32,151 bases of DNA from IMG/VR virus record IMGVR_UViG_3300029387_000010; one strand, given 5' to 3'. Positions 3,459 to 28,393 of this stretch are shown piece after piece. Position numbers and translations under genes: made by a program. The notes under the pieces were generated by a model that was not told the DNA's origin, searched no databases, and saw nothing but the letters and a program-made list of their open reading frames with translations. Numbering within the stretch: the stretch's first letter is position 1; every line of letters begins with the position of its first letter. This stretch comes from a virus.

Positions 3459-4385
3459 ATGCGGGGTGAAATGCCCCGTAAAACACTCGTTAAGAATATT
3501 AAAGTTAGGACAGAAAAGAAGATGTATATCCAGAAATATCAGACCTTCCGGAAGGGTGACGTGATTGATTATATCGAGATCCCAGATGGAAGATATGGGG
3601 CACGGGGATTGCCCCGGATGAAAAAGAAGAAACCCACGAAAGAACAGATAGCAGAGATTAATAAGCAGAATAAGGAGCGGAGATGCCGTGCGTACCTGAT
3701 GGAGTATTTCCGTCCAGGAGACACCTTCGCCACATGGACCTACAGACCTAGTGCCAGACCGCCGGACATGAAGTCAGCTCTAAAGGATTTCCAAAAGTCC
3801 ATCCGGAAAGTCCGGGAGGAATACAAGAAAAGAGGATATGAGTTGTTCTGGATCAGGAATATCGAAAAGGGAACTCGCGGAGCCTGGCACATCCATCTGG
3901 CAGTGAATGCCATACCGGGAACAGCAGAGATCCTGCGGAAAGCCTGGATAAAAGGTGGCATCTACATAGAGACCATCAGAGACTCGGAGAAATTCGGAGA
4001 TGACGACATGACCAGGTTAGCCGCTTATCTGACAAAGGACGCGAAAATGGGAGATAAAAAAGACGATGGATCCAGGGAGAAACCAAGACTCAAAGAATCA
4101 AGTTACGGTCATTCCCGGAATATGCAGCTCCCACCGGTGCGAAAGCGTAAGCTGCAGCATTGGAAAAAAGAAGTCAAACCGAAAAAGGGATACTACATAG
4201 CACGGATCTGGGAGGGAATCAATCCATACACCGGATTTAAGTACCGCAGGTACACCATGATCCGAATAGAAAGGAGACACGATGATGAAGGTTCAGATCT
4301 ACGTCACCACAACGCTCGCAGGTCCCGCCGTAAAAGACGGAAACTACGGAGCTGTCGTGGAATACATCACCCCAAAGGGGCATAA
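3459..4385 (+). CDS. HUH-superfamily rolling-circle replication initiator (Rep)
   Basis: Three ordered motifs: FATWTY (motif I), AWHIHLAVN (HUH, motif II), LAAYLTKD (Y-x-x-K, motif III). The start is uncertain (3459, 3471 or 3522). The basic C-terminal tail overlaps the next gene by 104 nt. Confidence 0.8.
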   Translation: MRGEMPRKTLVKNIKVRTEKKMYIQKYQTFRKGDVIDYIEIPDGRYGARGLPRMKKKKPTKEQIAEINKQNKERRCRAYLMEYFRPGDTFATWTYRPSARPPDMKSALKDFQKSIRKVREEYKKRGYELFWIRNIEKGTRGAWHIHLAVNAIPGTAEILRKAWIKGGIYIETIRDSEKFGDDDMTRLAAYLTKDAKMGDKKDDGSREKPRLKESSYGHSRNMQLPPVRKRKLQHWKKEVKPKKGYYIARIWEGINPYTGFKYRRYTMIRIERRHDDEGSDLRHHNARRSRRKRRKLRSCRGIHHPKGA

Positions 4386-4725
4386 AGAGATCCGCACTGT
4401 GACAGGGTTTGAAAAAAACACGACATGGCATCGAAGTGTCATCCTTGCCACGGTAAAAGCATTGAACATTTTGAAGGTTCCCTGTTCGGTTGAGGTCTAC
4501 ACGACATCCAATTTCGTGACGAACACGCTGAATTCGGGAAATGTAGAGAAGTGGAAACGTGCAGAGTGGCGCAAGTCCTCTGGAAAAGAGGTCAAAAACA
4601 AAGAATTATGGCAAGAATATGCCGATTTGGCAGAGCGTCACAAAATCCATGCCACACGCAGTAAAAATAACGAATATGTACGCTTACTTATGAAAATGTT
4701 CAAAGAAGATGCAGAAAGTAAATAG
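4282..4725 (+). CDS. RNase HI-fold protein lacking the catalytic DEDD residues
   Basis: AAGGAG lies 5 nt upstream of the start. VQIYVTTT...GNYGAVVEY...TTWHRSVILATVKAL...VEVYTTSNFV...KWKRAEWRKSSGKEVKNKELWQ parallels RNase HI (IFTDGS...GYG...TNNRMEL.A...STDSQYV...W...GW......VKN.DLW). Confidence 0.75.
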   Translation: MMKVQIYVTTTLAGPAVKDGNYGAVVEYITPKGHKEIRTVTGFEKNTTWHRSVILATVKALNILKVPCSVEVYTTSNFVTNTLNSGNVEKWKRAEWRKSSGKEVKNKELWQEYADLAERHKIHATRSKNNEYVRLLMKMFKEDAESK

Positions 4726-4766
4726 CAAAACGGCAGGGAAATGCCGATAATCCTTAAAAATACAGA

Positions 4767-5366
4767 ATGGGAGAGGTAGTGAATGTGATTAAAAATAAAG
4801 AGGAAATATTGCCGGATCTGATCAAGAAATATGAATCCGGTAAAACATTGTTGGAGCTGGGACATGAATATAAGCTTGCTCCAAAGACGATAAGCGGATG
4901 GCTAAAGGCTTGCGGCGTGAAAATGCGTATTAGCGGCAGCAGAAAGATAGAGATCGATAGAGAATTGCTTCAAAGAATGGCAGATGAGGGAATGTCGCAG
5001 GTAGAGATATGCGAAAAATTAAACATATCAACCAGTACAATGTCCGTCAGAATGAAAGAATACGGCATCAAGATCAACCGGGATGCAAGGAAAAAACGGA
5101 AAATAGAAGAAGAGCCTATGGAAGAAGAACCGGTGATTAAACCAGGCAAACCCAAAAAGAGATGCAGATCCTGTGTATTCCGAGCCGCAAGAAATGCAGT
5201 CAATGGCTGCAATTATTCATCGATCATCGAAAGATGCCGATTGCAGAAGCCGGAAGAATGCACCTTTTACGAAAGAGGAAGACGCATCGACCCAAAAAGC
5301 GCGCGAGCGAGTAAAAAGAGAGCGGAAGTGTGGGCAGAGTTGGAGAAGATAGGTGATCAAGCATGA
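4767..5366 (+). CDS. DNA-binding protein with two HTH modules and a C-terminal Cys cluster
   Basis: GKTLLELGHEYKLAPKTISGWLK and GMSQVEICEKLNISTSTMSVRMK are HTH-like. The C-terminus is CRSCVFRAARNAVNGCNYSSIIERCRLQKPEECTFYE. The true start may be a GTG a few codons in. Confidence 0.65.
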   Translation: MGEVVNVIKNKEEILPDLIKKYESGKTLLELGHEYKLAPKTISGWLKACGVKMRISGSRKIEIDRELLQRMADEGMSQVEICEKLNISTSTMSVRMKEYGIKINRDARKKRKIEEEPMEEEPVIKPGKPKKRCRSCVFRAARNAVNGCNYSSIIERCRLQKPEECTFYERGRRIDPKSARASKKRAEVWAELEKIGDQA

Positions 5367-6556
5367 GCATGGAAGAATGGCGACAAAAGAAGATTCGACA
5401 AAGAGGACGGTTTACTGTTCTTCAGAGGTTAGATTATCCAGTGAAGCTTAGACGTCAGAGAAACAGAGCATGGGAGTTCTATGAAGAAATGCTAAGCCGG
5501 GATAGAAGCACACATGTCAGTGTAGGAGGATTGGACAGTATTACACTATATATTTGGCTAATGAGCATAGGACTTAAGATTCCAGGAATATCAGTATCGG
5601 TTCTGGAAGATAAGAGTATCCAGAAAGTACATAGAGCACTGGGGCTAGAAATCGTGAAACCTTATAAAAGCAAAGTTCAGGTGTTGAATGAGGTTGGATT
5701 TCCTGTGATCAGCAAGAAAATAGCCGGAAGAATCAATACTTTACAGAATCCCACAGAGAATAATAAAACAGTACGCCATGCGATCATAACTGGAGAATGC
5801 GGGGAACAGGGACATTTTGCCAAGAACAGCAGAATGCAGTTGCCACAGAAATGGTTAAAGCTGTTTGGCGGCTACGAAAATGAAAACGAAGGCGTCTGCT
5901 ACGGAAAACCGGATCCGGATATCAAAATATCTAACGAATGCTGCTACTGGCTGAAAGAGAAACCATGCGACGACTGGGCAAAGATTCACAACAGTGCACC
6001 GTATCTTGGAATGATGGCATCAGAAGGTGGGCAACGCGAAGAGGCACTGATTGAGCACGGCTGCAACTATTACGGAAAAACCGTGACAAGATCAGCGCCG
6101 TTTGCGATATTCCAGAGACAGGATATCTTACAACTGGCTTTAGACATGAATGTCTGGTATCACGACCACATAGAGCTATTCGAGGAACTATATCATGCAC
6201 AGCCTTACGGACGAAACCCAGACGGAAGTCCCAAAGAATATGTTCCTTTGGACAGCATTGTCCCGGAGATATACGGAAAGGTCGAAAAAACTGGCGACGG
6301 TGAATTATATACGACCGGAGCACAACGGACAGGCTGCAGCATGTGCGGTTTCGGCATCCACCTGGAAGAACGTCCGCACCGGTTTGACAAGTTGCGGGAA
6401 CGCAATGAGAAAGAATGGGAATTCTGGATGTATCGGTGTTGTACGGATTCAGAGACAGGAGAGAAGTTCGGTTGGGGAAGAGTGCTGGACTATATCGGAG
6501 TGGAATGGGAAGATGTACCGCCGAGGCAGATGACGCTAGAGGATTACATGAAATGA
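5363..6556 (+). CDS. PAPS-reductase/PP-loop ATP-pyrophosphatase family protein (IbrA/DndC-like)
   Basis: PP-loop-like VSVGGLDSITLY near the N-terminus, C-terminal Cys motif GCSMCGFG, and a size typical of phage PAPS-reductase-like proteins. It is paired with a ParB-like gene. Confidence 0.8.
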   Translation: MSMEEWRQKKIRQRGRFTVLQRLDYPVKLRRQRNRAWEFYEEMLSRDRSTHVSVGGLDSITLYIWLMSIGLKIPGISVSVLEDKSIQKVHRALGLEIVKPYKSKVQVLNEVGFPVISKKIAGRINTLQNPTENNKTVRHAIITGECGEQGHFAKNSRMQLPQKWLKLFGGYENENEGVCYGKPDPDIKISNECCYWLKEKPCDDWAKIHNSAPYLGMMASEGGQREEALIEHGCNYYGKTVTRSAPFAIFQRQDILQLALDMNVWYHDHIELFEELYHAQPYGRNPDGSPKEYVPLDSIVPEIYGKVEKTGDGELYTTGAQRTGCSMCGFGIHLEERPHRFDKLRERNEKEWEFWMYRCCTDSETGEKFGWGRVLDYIGVEWEDVPPRQMTLEDYMK

Positions 6557-6624
6557 GTTTAGATGTTTTTAAGAATTATGAATGTGATGGTCAGATAGAG
6601 ATATCCGACTTGAAAGGAGAAGAG

Positions 6625-7989
6625 ATGGAAAAATTAATATACATACCGGCTGAGCAGATACATGAGCATCCGGATAATCCGCGGAAAAACCTTGGAGATC
6701 TTGAAGAGTTATCGGAATCGATCAAAAAGAAAGGCATCATGCAGAACATGACTGTTATGATCGGACACTGGGATGAAAAAGGAAAATGGCAGCAGGACGG
6801 GTATACGCTGCTGATCGGTCACAGAAGATTTGCGGCAGGAAAGATGGCAGCAGTCAGCGAATTCCCTTGCAGAGTAATTGAAAAGATTGATTACAAAGAC
6901 CAGATTGGAATCATGATGGAAGAAAACATGCAGCGCAATGACCTTACTATTTGGGAAGAAGCGAACGGATTCCAGATGATGTTAGACCTGGGAGACACAG
7001 AGGACCAGATAGCAGAAAAGACCGGATTCAGCAAATCCACGATCAAACACCGTTTGAACATTGCGAAGCTTGATCAGGACGTACTGAAGGAAAAAGAACA
7101 GAATGACGGCTACCAGTTAACTTTGAAAGGTCTATACGAACTGGAAAAGATCACGGATATCGATAAGCGAAATGAAATATTAAGACAGTCTGGTAGTTCT
7201 GTAGATCTGGTGGCAAGAGCCAGATCGGCAGTTGTATCTGAGAGAAAAGAAAAGGTTAAGCAGAAGATCATATCTGCTTTGGAAGCGTCTGGCGCTAAAA
7301 AGATGTCCGATAAAGATGAAATGAGTGTCTGGGATAGCGGTAAATGGAAAAAGATCCAGGAATACAAAACAGATAATGATTTAGGAGAGATCGATGTGCC
7401 GGAAAGTGATGAACAGTTATATTGGCGGACCATTTGGTCGGGCATCGAAGTCTACAAAAAGAAAAAGCAGGTGAAAAAGAAAGAGACCAAAGCTGAAAGA
7501 CTGGAGAAAGAGCGGAAAGCCAAGCAAAAGCAGATTAAAGAGGTCATGAAAAAGATGGACGCCCGCCGAAAAGAGTTTATACGAGACATCATTTCTGGAA
7601 AGATTGATCCGGCAAAGAACGAACAGAGATTAAAAGATCATATCTGGATGATCTTGGTGGCGGTAGGATGCGGTGTTTATAGATATAGAATGTCTGAGGT
7701 ACTCCTGGAAAAAGATTGGTATGAATGTTCGACAGAAGAACGTGATGAGGCATTGAAAAAAGTGGACGAGCTCAGTATCATCCACCAGATGCTGATTACT
7801 CTGCATTATGCCATAAAAGCAGACTGTAATGAAGTATACGATTATATGTGCAGATACAAAAAAGGTAATGGGCAGATTCGCCTGGAAGCCTACCGGATTC
7901 TTGAACTATATGGATGGTACTTCGAACCTGGGGAAAAAGAGATTTTAGACGGAACATCTGAACTGTATGAGGGCGAAGCTGATGAGTGA
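6625..7989 (+). CDS. ParB N-terminal-domain (ParB/Srx fold) protein, IbrB/DndB-like, with long C-terminal extension
   Basis: IYIPAEQIHEHPDNPRK...LLIGHRRFAAG (GxRR box), then HTH-like DQIAEKTGFSKSTIKHRL. ATG 6625 lies 7 nt after AAGGAG. An alternative ATG at 6553 overlaps the upstream stop. Confidence 0.8.
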   Translation: MEKLIYIPAEQIHEHPDNPRKNLGDLEELSESIKKKGIMQNMTVMIGHWDEKGKWQQDGYTLLIGHRRFAAGKMAAVSEFPCRVIEKIDYKDQIGIMMEENMQRNDLTIWEEANGFQMMLDLGDTEDQIAEKTGFSKSTIKHRLNIAKLDQDVLKEKEQNDGYQLTLKGLYELEKITDIDKRNEILRQSGSSVDLVARARSAVVSERKEKVKQKIISALEASGAKKMSDKDEMSVWDSGKWKKIQEYKTDNDLGEIDVPESDEQLYWRTIWSGIEVYKKKKQVKKKETKAERLEKERKAKQKQIKEVMKKMDARRKEFIRDIISGKIDPAKNEQRLKDHIWMILVAVGCGVYRYRMSEVLLEKDWYECSTEERDEALKKVDELSIIHQMLITLHYAIKADCNEVYDYMCRYKKGNGQIRLEAYRILELYGWYFEPGEKEILDGTSELYEGEADE

Positions 7990-8332
7990 TTTAATGTTTC
8001 CGAAACCGAAATGGAAAAAGAAGAAAAAAAGACATCCACCGTCTATATTACCGTCAGATAAGCATATCTGCTTCTTGTGTGCCAGGAACGGTGATTACAG
8101 ACCTAAAATCACGGAAGAACATCATGTGTTTTTCGGATCTGGCTTAAGAGATGCCAGCGAAGAGAACGGATTCAAGTGCGATCTGTGTATTCCGCATCAC
8201 CGAACAGGACCAGAAGCAGTACATAACAACCAGGAAACCAGAGAATATCTATGTAGGATATTCCAACAGCAATATGAACGTACTCACACGCATGAAGAGT
8301 TCATGGAGCTGGTGCACAAAAATTATTTATAA
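7982..8332 (+). CDS. Cys/His-rich (HNH/Rap-NinG-like zinc) protein, putative nuclease
   Basis: Basic N-terminus FPKPKWKKKKKRH, then CFLC...EEHHVFFG...CDLCIPHH...VHNN. The start (7982 or 7994) is uncertain. The function is an inference from the motif pattern. Confidence 0.5.
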   Translation: MSDLMFPKPKWKKKKKRHPPSILPSDKHICFLCARNGDYRPKITEEHHVFFGSGLRDASEENGFKCDLCIPHHRTGPEAVHNNQETREYLCRIFQQQYERTHTHEEFMELVHKNYL

Positions 8333-8381
8333 ACAATATATCACGACCCTCCGGGAGACCGGAGGGAAGAAAGGAAAAGCC

Positions 8382-8528
8382 ATGGCATATAAAATGACAT
8401 ACACAAAGGCAGCAGACATCTTGGAACAGCATAAAGACTGGGGATGGAATGGACGAACCACAAAAGCCATAGACATGGCGATTGAATTACTCAGAAAAGA
8501 GGCAAAGAAAAATGGCAAAGATAGATAA
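8382..8528 (+). CDS. Small hypothetical protein (48 aa)
   Basis: ATG 8382 follows GGAGGGAAGAAAGGAAAAG. The upstream part of track ORF 8151..8528 overlaps the previous gene out of frame. Confidence 0.45.
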   Translation: MAYKMTYTKAADILEQHKDWGWNGRTTKAIDMAIELLRKEAKKNGKDR

Positions 8529-20616: not shown

Positions 20617-20996
20617 TCCTCGCCCACATGATAAATACGGATGAAAATGCGTTGATCTGCGATCTGGCAGAAACGTATCACATCTATGATTATAAATCCC
20701 TACCATTGCACATGGTGGGGATTTTTGCATGTGGGTTGAGGCCTGATTCGAGAATCGGAATGAGGATATCTAACTCAAAGCTCACAACAGATCAGACAAT
20801 CCTCGCTCTAATCGCAGACAACACCAGAGCACTTGCTTGGTTGAACAGTGCGGATGGAGCAAAGGGGGTAAATAGACCAAAGTCTCTGATTGCGGCACTA
20901 CTTGATGGACAGACAGAAGAACGAGACATTGAAACATTTGAGTCCGGCCAGGACTTCGATGACGAGTGGAGACGACGGACAGGAGGTGATAAATAG
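20350..20996 (+). CDS. Tail assembly chaperone GT-like fusion product (via -1 frameshift at 20604-20610)
   Basis: The downstream frame is open from the slip site to TAG 20994-20996 and ends exactly at the tape measure start. This is the conserved G/GT arrangement of long-tailed phages. Confidence 0.65.
20604..20610 (+). other. -1 programmed ribosomal frameshift heptamer A_AAA_AAC
   Basis: Zero frame reads CCA AAA AAC TCA TGA. A -1 slip gives AAA AAA CTC ATG ATC..., which is the frame of ORF 20613..20996. Confidence 0.7.
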
Positions 20997-22864
20997 TGGC
21001 TACAGAACTTGCGAAAGCATATGTGCAGATTATTCCGTCTGCACAGGGAATCAGTGGAAAAATTCAGCAGGCAATAGACCCAGAGGCAGAACCGGCGGGG
21101 GCTTCGTTTGGAGGTAAATTAGTTGGAAAGTTAAAAGGGATTATTGCTACTGCAGCAATTGGAAAAGCGCTAGGATCAGCAATCAGTGAGGGAGCAAATC
21201 TTGAGCAAAGTCTTGGCGGAATTGAGACACTATTCAAGGATAGTGCTGACAAGGTTAAGGCGAATGCTGCGGAAGCCTATAGGACAGCCGGTATGAGCGC
21301 GAATGAGTACATGGAATTGACCACAAGTTTCTCCGCAAGCCTCCTATCAAGCTTAAGCAATGATACATCTAAGGCGGCAGATGTAGCAGATATGGCTATG
21401 ACCGATATGTCCGATAATGCCAATAAATTGGGAACCAACATGGAAGACATTAAGAACGCCTATCAGGGATTTGCGAAGCAAAATTACACGATGTTGGACA
21501 ACCTGAAGTTAGGTTATGGTGGTACCAAGACAGAGATGGAACGACTCCTTGCTGACGCTCAGAAAATCACTGGCGTGAAGTATGACATCAATAATTTGTC
21601 AGATGTGTATTCAGCAATCCATGTTATTCAGGGGCAGCTTGATATTACCGGAACAACTGCGAAGGAAGCGGCGACAACCTTAGCGGGATCGTTCGATTCC
21701 ATGAAGGCAGCAGCCAAGAATGTCATGGGAGAGATTGCGCTGGGAATGGATGTAAAACCGGCTTTGAATGCATTATCAGAGACGATTACTACATTTGTAG
21801 TGGGAAATCTTCTTCCGGCAGTATGGAATGTGCTATCAGCACTTCCGGGAGCACTTGTGAGCTTTATAGGAACTCTTATACCGCAGATTGTAACGGCATT
21901 GATGGAATTCGTACCGCAGGTGCAGGAACAAATTGTGGAAGCAGGACCACAATTCTATGAAATGGCAAGCAATATGATTAGTGGATTAAGCATCGGAATT
22001 CACACACAGCTCCCAAATTTGTTGCAGGATGGAGTCGAAATGCTTACAAATATCATAAACGGGATACTGCAGAATTTGCCGCAGCTTATAACGATGGGTG
22101 GAGAACTTATTATTCAGTTTTTGAATGCCATATTACCGGCATTACCGATGGTATTAGAAGCTGGCGCACAACTGTTGCTAAATATCGTAAATGGAATTAT
22201 CAATAATCTACCACAGATTGTCGTTGCAGTGGCGCAACTTATGATAAAATTTCGGGCAACAGTAGGTCAGCATCTACCACAGATTTTACAGACCGGAATT
22301 GAGATTATCGGAAAATTGGCAGCAGGACTCATCCGAGCAATACCGACACTGGTCGGAAAGATACCACAAATTATTACGGGAATAAAGTCGACGTTCTCGA
22401 ATGTCGATTGGGGATCGGTTGGTCATAATATTATCCGGGGAATCGCGAACGGACTTAAGAACGCAGGAAGCATGCTATGGGATGCGGTCAAAGGCGTTCT
22501 TGGAAGTTTCAAAGATAATGTGCTGTCATTCTTTGGAATTCGTTCTCCAGCACGCTGGGGCGTCTATGTAGGACGGATGATTGATGCAGGTTTCGCAAAA
22601 GGTGTTATCGGAGGTCTTCCAGCAGTGAATTCGGCAGTTGACCAGATACGTGCAGCAGCAATGAGCCCATTTGCGAACGCAAGCCTCAGCTATGACATGC
22701 AGGGGACAACAAACGTATCCAGAGATGCCGACCAGGAAACGGTTAATCGTCTGGATATTCTGATCGCGTTGTTACGAGCAATCCTAAATGGAAGAAACGA
22801 TGGAACATTTAGTGAGCGCGAGCTAGTCCGCGCACTGAGAGATATGGGGGTTGTATTTGCATGA
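20996..22864 (+). CDS. Tape measure protein
   Basis: 622 aa. GTG 20996 lies 7 nt after AGGAGGTG. Ala/Gly/Leu-rich helical protein with periodic LPQ(I/L) repeats in the C-terminal half. Confidence 0.92.
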   Translation: MATELAKAYVQIIPSAQGISGKIQQAIDPEAEPAGASFGGKLVGKLKGIIATAAIGKALGSAISEGANLEQSLGGIETLFKDSADKVKANAAEAYRTAGMSANEYMELTTSFSASLLSSLSNDTSKAADVADMAMTDMSDNANKLGTNMEDIKNAYQGFAKQNYTMLDNLKLGYGGTKTEMERLLADAQKITGVKYDINNLSDVYSAIHVIQGQLDITGTTAKEAATTLAGSFDSMKAAAKNVMGEIALGMDVKPALNALSETITTFVVGNLLPAVWNVLSALPGALVSFIGTLIPQIVTALMEFVPQVQEQIVEAGPQFYEMASNMISGLSIGIHTQLPNLLQDGVEMLTNIINGILQNLPQLITMGGELIIQFLNAILPALPMVLEAGAQLLLNIVNGIINNLPQIVVAVAQLMIKFRATVGQHLPQILQTGIEIIGKLAAGLIRAIPTLVGKIPQIITGIKSTFSNVDWGSVGHNIIRGIANGLKNAGSMLWDAVKGVLGSFKDNVLSFFGIRSPARWGVYVGRMIDAGFAKGVIGGLPAVNSAVDQIRAAAMSPFANASLSYDMQGTTNVSRDADQETVNRLDILIALLRAILNGRNDGTFSERELVRALRDMGVVFA

Positions 22865-23700
22865 TAGAAATCAAGTATGTATGCTCAAATGGAAAAGAGT
22901 ACAACCTGATCGGGGACCGGATGCGAGCGACATCCGGTTCTTTCCATGAGTATCAATGGAAGTCGATGACAACGGATCAGCAGATGGGTGTGGATGTTTA
23001 TGGATTTGAAAAAGAACCAAAAACATATCAGACCACGCTAACATTTCGTGGACCGCTGGAAGAGCGAAAAGCAAAGATGGACGAGCTGACCAATTGTTTT
23101 GAGTACGATGTTGTAAATCTCACTCCAGGACGAATATGGTTTGGAAGCTATTATATTGACTGCTATATTAATGAAATAACTACAGAAGTATCGTCTGTAA
23201 GAAATTGTTGGACGGATATGAAAGTTAGTGTTTATTGTCCATATCCGATGTGGACAATGGAGCAAACGAAAAGTTTTTATCCGGATGCGGCGGATAAAGG
23301 AGAACCTTACGAATATCTGGATTATCCGCATGATTATGCTTACGACTATTCGAAACCGTCATCCGGAACTGAACATTGGTATGTGGATCACTACAGAAGC
23401 AATAATTTCCGCATGACGATTTACGGACCGTGTGCGAATCCACGAATAATAATCAATGGACAAGTCTATCAGATTTACGACACACTGGAAGTGAATGAGT
23501 ATATTGTAATTGATTCGAGAAAAAAGACGATTATTAAGAGGCTTGCGAATGGAACGGAGCAAAATATCTTTTACAAGAAATCAGCAGGAAATTCAGTGTT
23601 TACGGAAATCCCTTCGGGCGATCTTTTGGTGAGCTGGAGCGGAGCATTTGGGTTTGATATTACGATATTCAAAGAAAGGAGCGTACCGAAGTGGATCTGA
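22861..23700 (+). CDS. Distal tail protein (Dit)
   Basis: 279 aa, ATGA overlap with the tape measure stop, canonical position. Confidence 0.75.
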   Translation: MIEIKYVCSNGKEYNLIGDRMRATSGSFHEYQWKSMTTDQQMGVDVYGFEKEPKTYQTTLTFRGPLEERKAKMDELTNCFEYDVVNLTPGRIWFGSYYIDCYINEITTEVSSVRNCWTDMKVSVYCPYPMWTMEQTKSFYPDAADKGEPYEYLDYPHDYAYDYSKPSSGTEHWYVDHYRSNNFRMTIYGPCANPRIIINGQVYQIYDTLEVNEYIVIDSRKKTIIKRLANGTEQNIFYKKSAGNSVFTEIPSGDLLVSWSGAFGFDITIFKERSVPKWI

Positions 23701-24698
23701 TAAAGACAAATCCGTATGGCATACAATTGGGGTATATCCGGAACGCTAACATAGATTTTGAAATAGGAGCAGATGAAAAGGACAGCATCAATGATTTTGA
23801 GATCGAACTGAAGCGTTGGAACTGGGATGGATCCATCGGATACGGAGCCAGGGTATTTTCGCCAGATACGGAATATGGTGGAATTGTTCGGGAAATCAGT
23901 ACAGACACATCGGCGAATATCATCCGTGCAAAGGGTGACACCTGGCGAGGCATGATGACCAAAAAAATCATACAGCCGTCGAGCGGGCAGGATTACGCTG
24001 TAGTGTCAGGGGAGCTTAATTCGATCATTAAAGCAAAGGTTGAAGCTGAGTTTCCAAGGCTATTTTACGGCGTCGAAACAGATACCGGTGTTAACGTGAC
24101 GAATTATCAGTTTGATAGATACTGTACGCTCCATAGCGGATTGACCAAGATGCTCAAATCTGTAGGATATCGTTTAGACATTAGATATCAGGAAGGCGAT
24201 GTCGGAATGCCCGGATATGTAAGGGTGAGAGCAGTTCCGATTAATGACCTGTCATCAGAGTACGAATTCACGAACGATAACAATATGAATTTCACAACCG
24301 ATGACAATCGACGCGGAATCAATCATCTAATCTGCCTGGGAAAGGGAGACCTAAAAGACAGGATAGTTGTCCACCTATACGTTGATCAGAACGGAGAAAT
24401 TTCGCAGACACAGCAGCATTTTACGGGTAGCGAAGAAATTGCAGCTATATACGATAGCAGCGGATCAGAAAAAAATGATTTGATCAAAAATGGAATCAAG
24501 GAGCTGGAGTCGAAAAAATCCAGTATGTCATACAACATGACTATGACAAAGCTGGAAGGGAATATCGATATAGGAGATATCGTAGGTGGAAGAGACTACC
24601 TGACGGGCATAAGCATGAAAAAGCCGATTGGCAGGAAGATTTGGACAATATCTTCTGGGAAAGAAAAGGTTGAATATAAATTGGAGGGTGATAATTAA
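23691..24698 (+). CDS. Siphovirus Gp37-like baseplate/tail-tip protein
   Basis: N-terminus ...GYIRNANIDFEIGADEKDSINDFEIEL...GARVFSPDTEYGGIVREI matches the ReqiPepy6 Gp37-like pattern. GTG start follows AAGGAG. Confidence 0.7.
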   Translation: MDLIKTNPYGIQLGYIRNANIDFEIGADEKDSINDFEIELKRWNWDGSIGYGARVFSPDTEYGGIVREISTDTSANIIRAKGDTWRGMMTKKIIQPSSGQDYAVVSGELNSIIKAKVEAEFPRLFYGVETDTGVNVTNYQFDRYCTLHSGLTKMLKSVGYRLDIRYQEGDVGMPGYVRVRAVPINDLSSEYEFTNDNNMNFTTDDNRRGINHLICLGKGDLKDRIVVHLYVDQNGEISQTQQHFTGSEEIAAIYDSSGSEKNDLIKNGIKELESKKSSMSYNMTMTKLEGNIDIGDIVGGRDYLTGISMKKPIGRKIWTISSGKEKVEYKLEGDN

Positions 24699-25664
24699 AT
24701 GGAGATTATTACTGGATATGTAGGAAAGAAGCATGTGACATCGGAACAGGAAAGAGACGTCAATCAAGGCATTGTAGGCCCAGGATCTTACGTATTGAAG
24801 ACGGGCATGCAAATGGAAGCAGAAGTTTCTTCTAACAATGAAATTAAGATCAGAGATGGAGTGCTGATGCATCAGGGATGCGCTGCATCAATTAAAAAGA
24901 ATACTTACGATTCATTAACCATCATCAATGGTAGTCAGGGCATGAAACGTATTGACTTAATTGTTGCCAGATATGAAAAGAATCGAGACGACGAAACAGA
25001 AAGCCTTAATCTGGAAGTCATCCAGGGAACACCGGCAGAGTCCAATCCGGCAGTTCCGGAATATACAGAGGGAAGTATTCAAGCAGGAGATTACATTGCA
25101 GATATGCCGATGTATCAAGTGATTATCAATGGATTAAACATTACAGAGGTAAAGCGATTGTTTGAAGTTGAACCGGATATCGACACTTTGAAAAAAGAGC
25201 TTGCTGAATTAAATGGCAAGATCAATCATAATTCCAACAAGCACATTCTGATCGGCAAATGGAGCAGCGCATGGAATCTTTCCGATACTCCCAAAAATAT
25301 CGGATCTAAAAAAGCCGCGATTGATAACGAATACTACAAGACCACCACCGGAGCGGATTCTGCCGTGACCGTCAAAAAGTCTGGGTTGTACTACGTATCA
25401 ATGTATGCGCAGGGATCAGCTGCTTCCGGTGCATCGGCATCCATACAGGCACAGGTTGTAGCAAGTGCCACAGTAGTAGATGATGCATACGTCCTGTTTG
25501 GAGCTGGCTATTCCTATAATGGATTAAGTGCGAACATCAACATAGGGCGCGTAGTGTTCCTACAAGCTGGAACAGTGCTCACGCCACAGCTTAAGAAATC
25601 CTCGGCATCTGGAGCTGCGTCAACCGCAGGAAGCTCTTACATGGAGGTTGTGCATATTTATTAA
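24699..25664 (+). CDS. Tail fibre/receptor-binding protein: constant N-terminal part (to about 25222) fused to variable cassette c1 (25223..25664)
   Basis: GGAGGGTG RBS. The crossover site AATTAAATGGCAAGAT lies at 25207-25222 (codons E-LNGK-I). The C-terminal 138 aa are 85/138 identical to the inverted cassette at 27542..27958. Confidence 0.85.
   Translation: MEIITGYVGKKHVTSEQERDVNQGIVGPGSYVLKTGMQMEAEVSSNNEIKIRDGVLMHQGCAASIKKNTYDSLTIINGSQGMKRIDLIVARYEKNRDDETESLNLEVIQGTPAESNPAVPEYTEGSIQAGDYIADMPMYQVIINGLNITEVKRLFEVEPDIDTLKKELAELNGKINHNSNKHILIGKWSSAWNLSDTPKNIGSKKAAIDNEYYKTTTGADSAVTVKKSGLYYVSMYAQGSAASGASASIQAQVVASATVVDDAYVLFGAGYSYNGLSANINIGRVVFLQAGTVLTPQLKKSSASGAASTAGSSYMEVVHIY
25207..25222 (+). 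repeat. Shufflon crossover site D (inside the fibre gene)
   Basis: AATTAAATGGCAAGAT. The identical 16-mer is at 27151-27166 (direct) and 27981-27996 (inverted). A 13-mer is at 25962-25974 (inverted). Confidence 0.9.
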
Positions 25665-25966
25665 GATAAGGTTATAGCACCAGCCGGTGAATAGTAGAAC
25701 AGTCCTGTAATCCGAAAGCGTCCGTTGACATTCTTGTTGAATACAGCGTATAGATTCTCACCTTGCCAAGTTACGCCCTCAGCATGTAAAGAGTCAGCAT
25801 TTCCGTCTCCATTCATGATGACGGCTCCTGAATTTTGCGGAGTAGCATCTGTTATCCCAAACAACGAATTGATCTTTGCAATGGTGGTTATCAATGCACT
25901 GGAGGTACCAGATCCATACGGAGTCATCGTGAAAAAAATGAACCGAACATTGTTCGCATAATTGCC
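25661..25966 (-). CDS. Start-less alternative fibre C-terminus, cassette c2
   Basis: The minus-strand frame is open from the LNG codons of site A: LNG-NYANNVRFIFFTMTPYGSGTSS...YYSPAGAITLS. The track ORF 25661..25927 is its 3' part. Its stop overlaps the c1 stop in TTAA. Confidence 0.75.
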   Translation of the reverse strand, partial: GNYANNVRFIFFTMTPYGSGTSSALITTIAKINSLFGITDATPQNSGAVIMNGDGNADSLHAEGVTWQGENLYAVFNKNVNGRFRITGLFYYSPAGAITLS

Positions 25967-25977
25967 ATTTAATTAAG
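25962..25977 (-). repeat. Shufflon crossover site A (inverted relative to D)
   Basis: TTGCCATTTAATTAAG is the reverse complement of CTTAATTAAATGGCAA. It shares 13 bp with D and 16 bp with B and C. Confidence 0.9.
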
Positions 25978-26027
25978 TAAGCGGATGACAATATGCTACA
26001 CTCAAATCAAAAAAAGGAGTGTGGCGA

Positions 26028-27014
26028 ATGGAGCAAAAGATCATGGAGGTAATGCGGCGGATGCAGGACATATTGTCAGAAGAACAGCTTCGAGAACTGC
26101 AGTCAGCTCTCAGAGTTACGTTTGATGGATGTGAGCTGCAATCAACGAATGAACTGATGGTGATGGATGATAGTTGGCAAGGGGATCTGGAAGATTTTCT
26201 GATGTCAAAAGCACTGGAAGGAAAGAGCAAGGCGACAATCATCCGGTATCGGTACGAGCTGGAAAGATTGCTATCGTACATCAATAAGGCAGTGGTCGAT
26301 ATTACAGACGCTGATATATCGAATTATATGAGGGCATACAAGAGAATTCGGAACATTAAAAACAGCACTCTTAAAGGTGTGCGGTCGATATATAGCAGCT
26401 TCTTTTCGTGGCTGCGTGATCGAGACCGGATCCGAAAGAATCCGATGGTGTTGGTGGAAGACATTAAGGTTCCAATCAGGGTGAGAGAGCCGTTCACGGA
26501 TGCGGAGCGAGAGAAACTTCTGAGAGAATGCCGGACGCTTCGGGATAAGGCTATAATGGAATTTCTATATTCCACAGCTGTCAGAGTTGGAGAATTGGTA
26601 AAGCTGAACCGGGGCGACATCAGATTTTCCGCAAAGGATCTGATTGTATGTGGTAAGGGCGACAAGGAACGAGTTGTTTATTTGAATGAACGTACTCACA
26701 TGTACCTGTTGGAATATCTGGAGAGTCGAACAGATACGAATCCAGCACTGTTCGTGTCGCTCAGATCACCGCATGAAAGACTGTCCGACAAAGGTGTAGA
26801 AGATATTGTACGTAGGACCGGAAGAAGAGTTGGCGTGAAAGCGTACCCGCATAAGTTCCGAGGTACATCAATTACCAATGCTCTCAATAGAGGAATGCCA
26901 TTGCAGGAAGCATCCTGTATGGCAGGTCATGTCAAATCAGACACAACATTAAGGTATGCTCAGTTGGATCAGGATTCAGTGAGATACCATCACAAGAAAT
27001 ATTTAAGTGCATAA
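26028..27014 (+). CDS. Tyrosine site-specific recombinase (XerC/D-integrase family), putative shufflon invertase
   Basis: Catalytic set in order: R (STAVRVGEL), K (GKGDKER), H-x-x-R (PHKFRGT), H (AGHVKSD), Y (TLRYAQ). ATG 26028 lies 8 nt after AAGGAG. The track start at 26019 is GTG. Confidence 0.9.
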   Translation: MEQKIMEVMRRMQDILSEEQLRELQSALRVTFDGCELQSTNELMVMDDSWQGDLEDFLMSKALEGKSKATIIRYRYELERLLSYINKAVVDITDADISNYMRAYKRIRNIKNSTLKGVRSIYSSFFSWLRDRDRIRKNPMVLVEDIKVPIRVREPFTDAEREKLLRECRTLRDKAIMEFLYSTAVRVGELVKLNRGDIRFSAKDLIVCGKGDKERVVYLNERTHMYLLEYLESRTDTNPALFVSLRSPHERLSDKGVEDIVRRTGRRVGVKAYPHKFRGTSITNALNRGMPLQEASCMAGHVKSDTTLRYAQLDQDSVRYHHKKYLSA

Positions 27015-27138
27015 CATACAAAAAATAAATGAGGAAAGGAGACTCCCCTTTAATCTCCGTGTTGTCGATACATCCGGCTAATGGTCGGGTGCTTTTGTTA
27101 TGCGCTTTTATATAGTAACTATTAACTTTAGATTCAAA

Positions 27139-27167
27139 GGAGTGGTTCTTAATTAAATGGCAAGATA
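27139..27167 (+). repeat. Shufflon site B: left arm of a perfect 29-bp inverted repeat
   Basis: GGAGTGGTTCTTAATTAAATGGCAAGATA is the exact reverse complement of 27980-28008. Confidence 0.95.
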
Positions 27168-27545
27168 CCGTTCTCGACCGTTCTGTACGATAACACTTCC
27201 GGAACAAAAACTGATGCCACATTGTCCGATAATGTAACGAACTACGAATACGTTGAAATATTCTATGGCAACGACCTAAATGATAATGATGCTTATGTGC
27301 CTATGCGTTCGATAAAAACGATACTGAAAGATGGATATGCAAGGGCGCGTTTACTATGGTTTGGCTCGACATCTGATTCTGCGAATCACCAGTTTTCCAG
27401 ATTGGCATTAGAATTACATGATAATACTATACATTTTGGTTCTGAGAATTTTGTTAATTTTTCATCGACCGCTGGGAGCGTCAAATGGAGCAACGCATCG
27501 ACGAAACATTTTAAAATATTTCGGGTAATTGGCTGGAAACATTAA
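27153..27545 (+). CDS. Start-less alternative fibre C-terminus, cassette c3
   Basis: The frame is open from TTA AAT GGC (27153): LNGKIPFSTVLYDNTSGTKTDATLSDNVTNYEY...VIGWKH. An in-frame TAA lies immediately upstream (27150-27152). The track ORF 27222.. starts at a TTG. Confidence 0.75.
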   Translation, partial: LNGKIPFSTVLYDNTSGTKTDATLSDNVTNYEYVEIFYGNDLNDNDAYVPMRSIKTILKDGYARARLLWFGSTSDSANHQFSRLALELHDNTIHFGSENFVNFSSTAGSVKWSNASTKHFKIFRVIGWKH

Positions 27546-27988
27546 GCAAGTTTTACAACTTCCATATACGAACTACCAGTTGTTGCAGATGCACCTGACG
27601 TATCAGATTTTCTTATTTGCGGTGAAAGAACAGTACCATTTTCAAGGCAGATAATTCGACTCATATTCACGTTCACGGAAAAACCATTATACGAATACTG
27701 AGAGCCGAAAAGCACGTAGTTATCATCAATGATCGTTCTATCTGCAATGACTTGCGCTTGAATACATGCTGATGCACCTTGGTTTGCGGCACCTTGTGCA
27801 TACATAGTCACACAGTATAAACCTGATTGCTTTATGGTTACGGTCGCATTTGCACCAGTTGTGGTTTTGTAACAATCATCATTAACAATTGGTTTGCTAG
27901 AGCCGATATTTTTTGCGGTTGTGGACAAGCTCCACGAGCTTCCCCACTTTCCGATCAATACATTATTTTTGCGATTATTTATCTTGCC
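27542..27988 (-). CDS. Start-less alternative fibre C-terminus, cassette c4 (homologue of c1)
   Basis: The minus frame is open from the LNG codons of site C: LNGKINNRKNNVLIGKWGSSWSLSTTAKNIG...SSYMEVVKLA. The only start is a TTG. Its stop overlaps the c3 stop in TTAA. Confidence 0.8.
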   Translation of the reverse strand, partial: GKINNRKNNVLIGKWGSSWSLSTTAKNIGSSKPIVNDDCYKTTTGANATVTIKQSGLYCVTMYAQGAANQGASACIQAQVIADRTIIDDNYVLFGSQYSYNGFSVNVNMSRIICLENGTVLSPQIRKSDTSGASATTGSSYMEVVKLA

Positions 27989-28008
27989 ATTTAATTAAGA
28001 ACCACTCC
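27980..28008 (-). repeat. Shufflon site C: right arm of the 29-bp inverted repeat
   Basis: TATCTTGCCATTTAATTAAGAACCACTCC. Its reverse complement equals 27139-27167. Confidence 0.95.
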
Positions 28009-28021
28009 GGAAAGGAGTGAT

Positions 28022-28393
28022 ATGAAACTCATATTTAATGATGCCACTGAACTGGTGGTCCAGTCTGCGGACATCCAATCAGATGGAGGACTTCTGATCA
28101 AGACGATCTCGGCGTCAGAGGAAGACTTGAAAACCATGTTCCAGGATCAGACAAAAACCAAGAAGATGGTTGTGAAAGAGCGTGAGTCCACACTTAGCGA
28201 ATATGAGAATTACACCAACATGGATGCCATTGTGAAGTACACAGCCGGCATTACTGGCGTGATTCTTTATAAGGTTGGTGAGACGCCGGCAGAAAAGATA
28301 GAAGCTCTTACGGCAGAGAATGCTGAGCTGAAAAAGGCTGTTGACATGCTCCAGGGGTGCATCCTTGAAATGTCCGAGCTGGTATATCAGTAA
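28022..28393 (+). CDS. Hypothetical tail-module protein (C-terminal LEMSELVYQ motif)
   Basis: AAAGGAGTG RBS. 123 aa. The C-terminal coiled segment is shared with 30471..30809. Confidence 0.65.
   Translation: MKLIFNDATELVVQSADIQSDGGLLIKTISASEEDLKTMFQDQTKTKKMVVKERESTLSEYENYTNMDAIVKYTAGITGVILYKVGETPAEKIEALTAENAELKKAVDMLQGCILEMSELVYQ

Follow-up and report, generated by a model that had tools for sequence, protein, structure and literature searches.

A probable multiple-inversion switch for the receptor-binding protein of a gut Lachnospiraceae phage, with four alternative heads around an embedded tyrosine recombinase

Why would the tail fibre gene of a phage be followed by three open frames that have no start codons, arranged around a tyrosine recombinase gene and each opened by a short repeat that also lies within the fibre gene itself? 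This arrangement is found in a 32,151-nt viral record of IMG/VR (IMGVR_UViG_3300029387_000010), which is referred to here as the window and in which all coordinates are given. The original prediction, drawn from the sequence without database searches, was of a tail-fibre shufflon with four alternative C-termini, and all four of the fusion proteins that it implied are present in public data on the same N-terminal domain (N-domain). A database search for other orientations of the locus also returned inversion isomers at 99 per cent nucleotide identity whose breakpoints fall at the repeats. The locus is thus very probably a multiple-inversion switch (shufflon) for the phage receptor-binding protein, with four alternative heads.

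The repeat occurs four times, at one site within the expressed gene (D) and at three silent sites (A, B and C; Table 1). The 16-mer AATTAAATGGCAAGAT is present at 25207-25222 (+), 27151-27166 (+) and 27981-27996 (-), and the 13-mer AATTAAATGGCAA at 25207-25219 (+), 25962-25974 (-), 27151-27163 (+) and 27984-27996 (-); with up to one mismatch allowed, the 13-mer has four matches in the window against a mean of 0.08 in dinucleotide shuffles, and 0 of 100 shuffles reach four. Sites B and C belong to a perfect 29-nt inverted repeat (27139-27167 / 27980-28008). When each site is read outward as TTA-AAT-GGC (Leu-Asn-Gly), open frames follow of 151 (cassette c1), 103 (c2), 130 (c3) and 150 (c4) codons, in frame with LNG and without starts of their own. 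The original positions for sites, repeats and frames were all recovered, and the in-frame stop that had been noticed ahead of c3 has counterparts at the other two silent sites: TAA stands directly before TTA at all three, and GAA (Glu) takes its place at expressed site D.

Table 1. Positions of the features of the locus and of neighbouring genes in the window.
Feature	Position	Strand	Remark
Fibre gene as assembled: constant N-domain plus c1, 321 aa	24699..25664	+	phrog_25635, E 8e-125
Constant N-domain, aa 1-170, ending in helix 161-173 and a low-confidence hinge	24699..25208	+	
Site D, within expressed gene	25202..25219	+	arm T-N-C-T-G-AATTAAA plus hexamer TGGCAA (25214-25219)
Cassette c1, predicted TNF/C1q-like head, currently expressed	25220..25664	+	
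Cassette c2, silent, convergent with c1, overlapping stop codons	25661..25961	-	no start of its own
Site A, silent	25962..25979	-	arm and core like D, but T at -1 gives in-frame TAA
Xer-like tyrosine recombinase, 328 aa, putative shufflon invertase	26028..27014	+	PF00589 1.9e-27, and PF13495
Terminator-like hairpin, 3' of recombinase gene	27071..27091	+	predicted, pattern scan only
Site B, silent	27139..27163	+	extended flank GGAGTGGTTCTT common to B and C; TAA at 27150-27152
Cassette c3, silent	27164..27545	+	fused to 100%-identical N-domain in P0060 / L271 / L272
Cassette c4, silent, homologous to c1	27542..27983	-	phrog_25635 positions 173-319, E 6e-58
Site C, silent	27984..28008	-	perfect 29-nt inverted repeat with B
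Conserved downstream gene, phrog_12931, function unknown	28022..28393	+	right boundary of shufflon
Tape measure gene	20996-22864		
Dit gene	22861-23700		
Tal-like minor tail protein gene	23691-24698		

The anatomy of the sites can be read from related loci, in which 77 unique sites at 25 loci give the consensus T-N-C-T-K-A-A-Y-W-A-A-R-T-R-G-C-A-A over positions -5 to +12 and no conservation on the cassette side from +13 onward. Polymorphisms at -1, +2, +3 and +6 do not travel with the cassettes but keep to their place in the locus (at position -1, for example, site D has G where the silent sites have T), and the cassette-specific bases start at +13. Because polymorphisms through +6 stay with position and cassette bases begin at +13, strand exchange maps to the hexamer T(G/A)GCAA (TGGCAA in the window), and cleavage is presumably placed there as well. 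The homology of the window to three related loci (L002, L128 and L271) stops at 25219-25222, that is, at site D. The 16-mer had been taken for the functional site; the data favour instead one conserved arm plus TGGCAA with an unconserved arm inside the cassette, so that the site appears from its sequence to combine a short core with a conserved arm on one side and a variable arm on the other. A further near-copy that matches the core at 11 of 13 positions (AATTAAATGGAGA, 24692-24709, hexamer TGGAGA) lies in direct orientation with respect to site D and runs across both the Tal-like stop codon and the fibre-gene ATG. It is probably no real site, and could be a relic or a weak pseudo-site.

The predicted fold of the fibre protein places site D between two domains. 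An AlphaFold2 model built from 45 homologues (mean pLDDT 83.4) has a beta-rich N-domain with pLDDT above 90 at residues 30-153, then the helix at 161-173, a low-confidence hinge at approximately 171-180 and a C-terminal beta-sandwich at 182-319. The recombination site supplies codons E170-L-N-G-K174 and therefore coincides with the helix and hinge that join the constant domain to the head. Among PDB folds the model comes closest to the receptor-binding protein of lactococcal phage 1358 (4l92, E 1e-10), and its head matches jelly rolls of the TNF/C1q kind (4-1BBL, RANKL, BclA and ExsFA among others); the fibre is thus predicted to be a receptor-binding protein of the lactococcal phage 1358 type whose head is TNF/C1q-like. 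Cassettes c1 and c4 share ~62 per cent amino-acid identity.

In the proposed mechanism the constant 170-residue N-domain would anchor the protein in the tail tip and would be followed by the helix, the hinge and an exchangeable head. The four sites (D+, A-, B+, C-) would bound three invertible segments, of which S1 carries the convergent pair c1 and c2, S2 the recombinase gene and S3 the convergent pair c3 and c4. The Xer-like recombinase would bind the conserved arm T-N-C-T-K-AATTAAA and exchange strands within TGGCAA between any two inverted sites, such that D × A would place c2 behind the N-domain, B × C would flip S3, D × C would bring S3 to the expressed position with inversion of the recombinase gene, and A × B would turn the recombinase gene back. 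Sixteen arrangements would be accessible (two orders, two orientations for each cassette pair and two for the recombinase segment), each head being expressed in four of them, and c3 and c4 would reach the expressed site solely through D × C. The silent cassettes lack a start codon, and in this lineage the in-frame TAA ahead of them remains with the flank. The expected outcome would be a phage population with four alternative receptor specificities, presumably directed at different receptors.

The N-domain relatives show how far the heads vary. Assemblies from IMG/VR, ENA and Logan were compared (loci are labelled L and proteins P below), and every one of 80 IMG/VR proteins related through the N-domain diverges right after AELN(G/S)(K/N). 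A tblastn search of c1-c4 against these 80 relatives gave almost no matches, because even 99 per cent identical phages carry other cassettes; cassettes were then traced by an exact-site scan of metagenomes and by a search with the full-length fibre protein, which returned 2916 relatives. At least 11 different C-termini are found on N-domains that are 99-100 per cent identical to the first 170 residues of the window protein, among them c1 (P0008) and c4 (P0009, with c4 also fused to an N-domain in L149, L124 and L226). Cassette c3 is fused to an N-domain 100 per cent identical to that of the window in P0060, and c2 is fused to an N-domain in L138 (99 per cent amino-acid identity) and to a window-type N-domain in P0086. 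The same cassettes also occur in the silent state, c1 beside a C-type flank in L138 and L271 and c3 at position A in L149, and each larger cassette family has fused members as well as silent ones at A, B or C. The same heads occur in addition on N-domains just 33-69 per cent identical to that of the window. Matches from a protein search with c3 alone were rejected as fusions, being short gene calls on silent copies or one ambiguous 715-nt contig.

Nucleotide comparisons place these fusions in whole rearranged loci. The scaffold that encodes P0060 (L271) comes from the same phage, with 99.76 per cent identity over 6524 nt up to site D, and beyond that site it carries S3 in direct orientation (99.64 per cent) at the first position and S1 inverted (99.35 per cent) at the second. 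Its order of D->c3, A->c4, B->c2 and C->c1 is that of the window after D × C, A × B and D × A. In L138 the stretch corresponding to window 25204-25982 is inverted at 98.97 per cent identity, which puts c2 on the N-domain. L149 has S3 inverted (99.06 per cent) at the S1 position with c4 expressed, and there the stretch from A through the recombinase to B is direct at 99.75 per cent and the downstream gene direct at 99.84 per cent. Among more distant relatives, L046 and L079 are isomers with S1 inverted at 99.88 per cent between direct flanks (99.5 and 98.2 per cent); S1 is inverted between L002 and L139; S1 and S3 are swapped, and both inverted, with the recombinase gene direct between L046 and L064 and between L010 and L011; and the A-recombinase-B segment is inverted relative to the fibre gene between L245 and L244 and between L248 and L247. 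The relatives therefore provide near-identical isomer pairs for D × A, for A × B and for D × C plus A × B, and their cassette orders imply B × C. The alternative junctions recur across independent samples and pipelines (IMG/VR, ENA, Logan), and since the repeats (13-29 nt) are shorter than assembler k-mers, the assembled junctions must come from reads.

These isomers bear out part of the switching scheme first put forward and amend the rest. Installation of c2 by D × A stands. Installation of c4 or c3 through D × C alone would also invert the recombinase gene: both cassettes are seen at D with the recombinase in its usual orientation, which needs a further A × B exchange. Inversion of the recombinase by D × C and its restoration by A × B fits both the states in which S1 and S3 are swapped with the recombinase in its usual orientation and the rare state in which it is inverted. 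Products of A × B are seen rarely, in 2 of 43 loci; one might guess that this rarity reflects selection for co-transcription of the recombinase gene with the late genes. Three loci (L138, L151, L113) have two cassettes, a C-type flank and no recombinase; they look like deletions between the direct sites A and C, and could equally be ancestral. Should they be deletions, the restriction of the system to inversion may not be absolute.

The recombinase has a SAM-like core-binding domain and PF00589, with no arm-binding domain, and aligns end to end with XerA and XerD, which are also its PDB matches; its NCBIfam XerA-type match (1.4e-58) is below the family cutoff. The complete R-K-H-R-H-Y set noted at the outset corresponds to R186, K213, H275, R278, H301 and Y310, which align with the catalytic residues of XerD and XerA, and the hexad is intact. 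Among 88 related loci, counted as those in which the fibre gene and the downstream gene are both visible, the recombinase is present in 29, with a fibre-to-downstream gap of 2.2-2.8 kb, and absent from 59, with a gap of 0.36-1.4 kb and never above two sites. The strict site pattern is matched four times in 20 of the 29, and all 20 loci with four strict sites carry the recombinase. Across many lineages it is kept at 59-100 per cent identity with all catalytic residues, always between sites A and B. Lachnospiraceae homologues at 37-67 per cent identity sit in the same layout (+ - rec + -), with differing cores and beside unrelated fibre genes, one of which encodes >900 aa. A main role as integrase or dimer resolvase was rejected, as the recombinase is tied to multi-site loci and missing from many related phages, and scans of nine proteins around the locus gave no resolvase-family match that would indicate a serine recombinase. 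The encoded tyrosine recombinase is the putative catalyst of the inversions, a role deduced from its sequence and position.

Several observations weigh against this account or speak for a history of evolutionary mosaicism, in which rare general or illegitimate recombination at a short conserved junction would have exchanged and inverted the cassettes, while the recombinase would have another function (dimer resolution, for example, or integrating a plasmid-like prophage). Eight contigs carry the exact fibre protein, which reduce to two non-redundant places, and both contigs of the exact phage that were examined (L279 and L280, 100 per cent identical to the window) are in the same state as the window. 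Switching may therefore be slow. The N-c2 protein P0086 is truncated and lies in a decayed prophage, the site A junction of L271 is a 10-N gap (7340-7349), its linkage thus coming from scaffolding, and the recombinase-inverted state at 2 of 43 loci is below the expectation for unbiased A × B and D × C. Furthermore, cassette pairs are replaced wholesale among otherwise 99 per cent identical phages, which could arise by flanking homologous recombination, and the window encodes a replication initiator and a ParB-like protein and has no other integrase. One inversion could also have taken another route altogether: L015 and L023 (both 6480-7332) are recombinase-less two-cassette inversion isomers (853 nt at 99.4 per cent, flanks 98-99 per cent), and because the arm polymorphisms travel with the cassette there, the breakpoint must lie further upstream, outside the core and inside a 45-bp inverted repeat around AATAAGRATTTG. 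The pair suggests that another site, an enzyme acting in trans or homologous recombination was at work.

Mosaicism is nonetheless an improbable explanation for the locus as a whole. The repeats are merely 13-29 bp, and crossover is limited to the same hexamer in three site clades even where longer flanking identity is available. The recombinase accompanies every locus with four strict sites, and no locus without it has more than two; its closest annotated relatives are found in hsdS inversion loci and not at attachment or dif sites, and the existence of phages in this group that lack it indicates that it is dispensable for the life cycle. Less probable still is that site-specific inversion is real but catalysed in trans by a recombinase of the host or of a co-resident prophage, the encoded enzyme being accessory or inactive. 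Two-site loci with no recombinase between fibre and downstream gene do occur in both orientations, which speaks for such an enzyme; the conservation of the encoded recombinase with its catalytic residues in so many lineages and its invariable place between A and B argue otherwise, and the breakpoint of the recombinase-less pair L015/L023 lies elsewhere. That the minus-strand and downstream frames might be independent small genes, for instance fibre chaperones, with the repeats serving as shared regulatory or translation signals, is very unlikely: gene callers do annotate separate small open reading frames from internal ATG or TTG codons, but no ribosome-binding site or start codon stands at the conserved beginnings of the frames, conservation sets in exactly with the LNG codons, c4 aligns with the C-terminal half of the family to which the fibre belongs, and each of the four cassettes is found as an in-frame fusion to the N-domain. 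Assembly artefacts of the inverted repeats are hardly credible as the source of the alternative arrangements, for although several contigs end at a site, one scaffold gap lies there and contig L245 ends in a fold-back copy of its flank, junctions across repeats below the k-mer size need read support and the same ones appear in independent samples and pipelines.

Some contigs deserve mention in their own right beside the shufflon reading. The retrieved sequence ends within 150 nt of a site in 12 of 70 site-bearing loci, a count to which no proper null was applied; L272, a sister contig of L271 (k141), ends at site A, exactly at the gap in L271. These assembly breaks hint at mixed orientations within samples. 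A 1.6-kb contig (L278, 1-1623) has the N-domain with c1 on one strand and, on the opposite strand, c2 on another N-domain at 69 per cent nucleotide identity to that of the window, and looks like a merge of two phages from one sample, both with the same c1/c2 segment but in opposite orientations. In L227 (1717-2211) a c3-like head (89.5 per cent nucleotide identity to S3) ends a 164-aa gene whose N-terminus is short and unrelated and whose junction reads 'EINNNL', and a tyrosine recombinase (4123-5115) lies ~2 kb downstream beside an endolysin; this head thus seems to serve in genes of quite different context. Within a 207-kb contig, a prophage (L273, 6001-8100) has a window-type N-domain with c2, truncated ~40 residues into c2, and a degraded, partial recombinase region (72 per cent identity); it looks either like a shufflon that is decaying while locked on c2 or like an error of hybrid assembly.

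Other contigs concern the recombinase. In L119 (reverse complement, 5283-8523) a second, partial copy of its gene lies beyond another A-type flank, in the order D, A, rec, B, A', rec'..., which suggests tandem duplication of a unit of recombinase plus cassettes, possibly with more than four cassettes; the contig stops there. Xer-like 'integrase' genes 33-34 per cent identical to the window enzyme sit between the last tail gene and the holin of two cultured Clostridia phages, Terrisporobacter phage TPELB_ph1 (L224, 3369-4364), which has an additional 527-aa gene annotated as integrase, and Clostridium phage phiCp-D (L225, 3444-4421); their products may be unrecognised fibre-inversion enzymes or remnants of them. 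An Atopobium locus (L174) with four repeats round a 42 per cent homologue was rejected as a shufflon, its outgoing frames being short, and an Eggerthellaceae contig (L172) with a 36 per cent homologue is too short for a reading.

The genome around the locus is of siphovirus type, with a repressor, the replication initiator (phrog_3584) and ParB-like protein (window 3459-4385 and 6415-7989), the large terminase and tail genes in the order tape measure, Dit, Tal-like gene, fibre gene, shufflon and a 123-aa gene, with a holin further on. The 123-aa gene at 28022..28393 forms the right edge of the variable region across the 88 related loci. A promoter scan gave 10 matches against 9.4 in shuffles, which is no excess. 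Two contigs that are 100 per cent identical to the window across 9-11 kb measure 32,163 and 32,077 nt, so that the window is probably close to the entire phage genome. SRR5056704 and ENA ERZ28636259 hold contigs that match the window at 100 per cent identity. The shufflon recombinase is the sole integrase-type gene in these ~32 kb, and the phage may persist as a plasmid-like prophage; in contrast to this idea, some relatives sit in 200-385 kb contigs. A close relative comes from Dorea sp. AF36-15AT (N-domain 95 per cent and recombinase 97 per cent identical) and Lachnospiraceae genomes hold recombinase homologues at 59-67 per cent identity; the phage is of the gut Dorea/Lachnospiraceae type. 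A search of GenBank phage DNA with the locus gave weak, partial matches only, the best of them to Clostridium scindens phage phiCs5676-1, whose fibre locus is without a shufflon.

Next to nothing is known of which hosts gut Lachnospiraceae phages infect, and few of these phages have been cultured. A phage that cycles through four heads would complicate host prediction, would blur the comparison of related phages through its swapped heads and would interrupt metagenome assemblies where the locus lies. Its interchangeable heads on a common scaffold would also offer a natural set for engineering, and a compact, asymmetric, inversion-prone site with a small recombinase could serve as a shuffling tool in Gram-positive synthetic biology. 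A wider reading, which is possible though rather doubtful, is that the recombinase and its four sites are a portable device of shared ancestry with hsdS inversion loci that was recruited to 1358-type proteins independently of the Rin system of Bifidobacterium prophages, and whose sites also exchange cassettes between co-resident phages. It fits the 11 or more heads on one N-domain, the same heads on N-domains of 33-69 per cent identity and the same layout on an unrelated fibre of >900 aa; if it were true, Lachnospiraceae phages would draw on a community-wide pool of receptor-binding heads.

The nearest functional parallel is Rin, a tyrosine-invertase shufflon for the receptor-binding protein in Bifidobacterium prophages (Mavrich et al. 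2018; PMC6109161), which was described as the first phage-encoded tyrosine invertase system (PMC6109161) and of which the type was later reported in Eggerthella lenta prophages (PMC8778435). The unusual standing first claimed for the present locus, with the plasmid R64 pilV shufflon as the classical tyrosine system, was therefore overstated. Bifidobacterium phage PMBT6 was used as a stand-in for a Rin-type locus, chosen by its repeats and embedded recombinase: TTCCGTAACCC lies within its receptor-binding protein gene near codon 166, again directly after the gene and again further on, with an inverted copy beside the embedded recombinase. In both systems a phage-encoded tyrosine recombinase without an arm-binding domain adjoins the receptor-binding protein gene, a constant N-terminus of ~168-170 residues is combined with exchangeable C-terminal cassettes of ~100-150 residues, asymmetric short repeats open each cassette, the cassettes are promoterless, and the evidence consists of natural inversion isomers. 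The window N-domain and the N-part of the PMBT6 protein are 28 per cent identical over 174 aa (E 9e-14), in an alignment that ends at the ELAELNGK split point, and both proteins are related to the receptor-binding protein of lactococcal phage 1358 (from the fold match here, and from PMC6109161). However, the recombinases are not orthologous, only 37 residues round the catalytic motif being alignable with that of PMBT6 (E 0.043), and the site of the window (T-N-C-T-K-AATTAAA-TGGCAA) differs from that of Rin (TTCC(C/G)TAACCC); the rix crossover site TTCCCTAACCC, searched as TTCCSTAACCC with up to one mismatch, has no match in the window. The window recombinase is central and on its own invertible segment, whereas that of Rin is at the end; the window has two convergent cassette pairs with no site between partners, whereas Rin has a second direct site after the expressed gene; and the hosts are Lachnospiraceae (Bacillota) as opposed to Actinomycetota. 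One design of receptor-binding protein seems, then, to have acquired inversion machinery on two or more occasions, with Rin in one case and with this Xer/hsdS-type recombinase in the other.

In its layout the locus also resembles the R64 / IncI pilV shufflon with its recombinase Rci and sfx sites, which likewise combines a tyrosine recombinase with multiple inversions behind one shared constant N-terminus and has invertible segments with two convergent C-terminal cassettes. The sfx sites are asymmetric as well, with a conserved core, one conserved arm and a variable arm, and this asymmetry is thought to limit Rci to inversion (PMC11852207). The enzymes are not orthologous, however: the window recombinase is 23 per cent identical to Rci over 239 aa (E 0.002; NC_005014 102002-103156), and at 328 aa against 384 aa it is without the long C-terminal extension of Rci. 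The target here is a phage receptor-binding protein and not a pilus adhesin, the recombinase gene lies inside the shufflon, and there are four sites and two cassette segments where R64 has seven sites and four segments.

Among annotated sequences, the window recombinase is closest to neither of these but to recombinases of hsdS invertons in type I restriction-modification systems. The homologue on a Ligilactobacillus salivarius plasmid (NZ_CP047413), which is 41 per cent identical over 328 aa (E 2e-88), lies between partial hsdS genes, and inverted repeats of 16-20 nt connect the hsdS fragments on that plasmid to the middle of the full-length hsdS gene. There too the recombinase stands between silent half-genes and domains of a specificity protein are swapped, and recombinases of hsdS loci (pneumococcal PsrA/CreX) are known to act as invertases (PMC7672463, PMC7096588). 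The sequence comparison with this group covers the L. salivarius homologue, itself a putative invertase, and PsrA enters by its published description. The two differ in that a DNA specificity subunit is altered in the one and a virion receptor-binding protein in the other, and their sites are unrelated.

The classical phage switches Gin, Cin, Pin and Min (of Mu, P1, e14 and p15B) are alike in that fibre C-termini are switched by site-specific inversion with a change of host range, and Min is the multi-segment version of such a switch. These enzymes are serine invertases with a Fis-dependent enhancer, whereas the sole recombinase at the window locus is of the tyrosine type (PF00589). No description of such a system in phages of Lachnospiraceae or other Bacillota was found in the literature searched, which is not proof of absence. 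As judged from the sequences, the locus would work like Rin and R64, and by enzyme or site sequence it belongs to neither. What is new is the recombinase, the site and the layout; the kind of device was already known.

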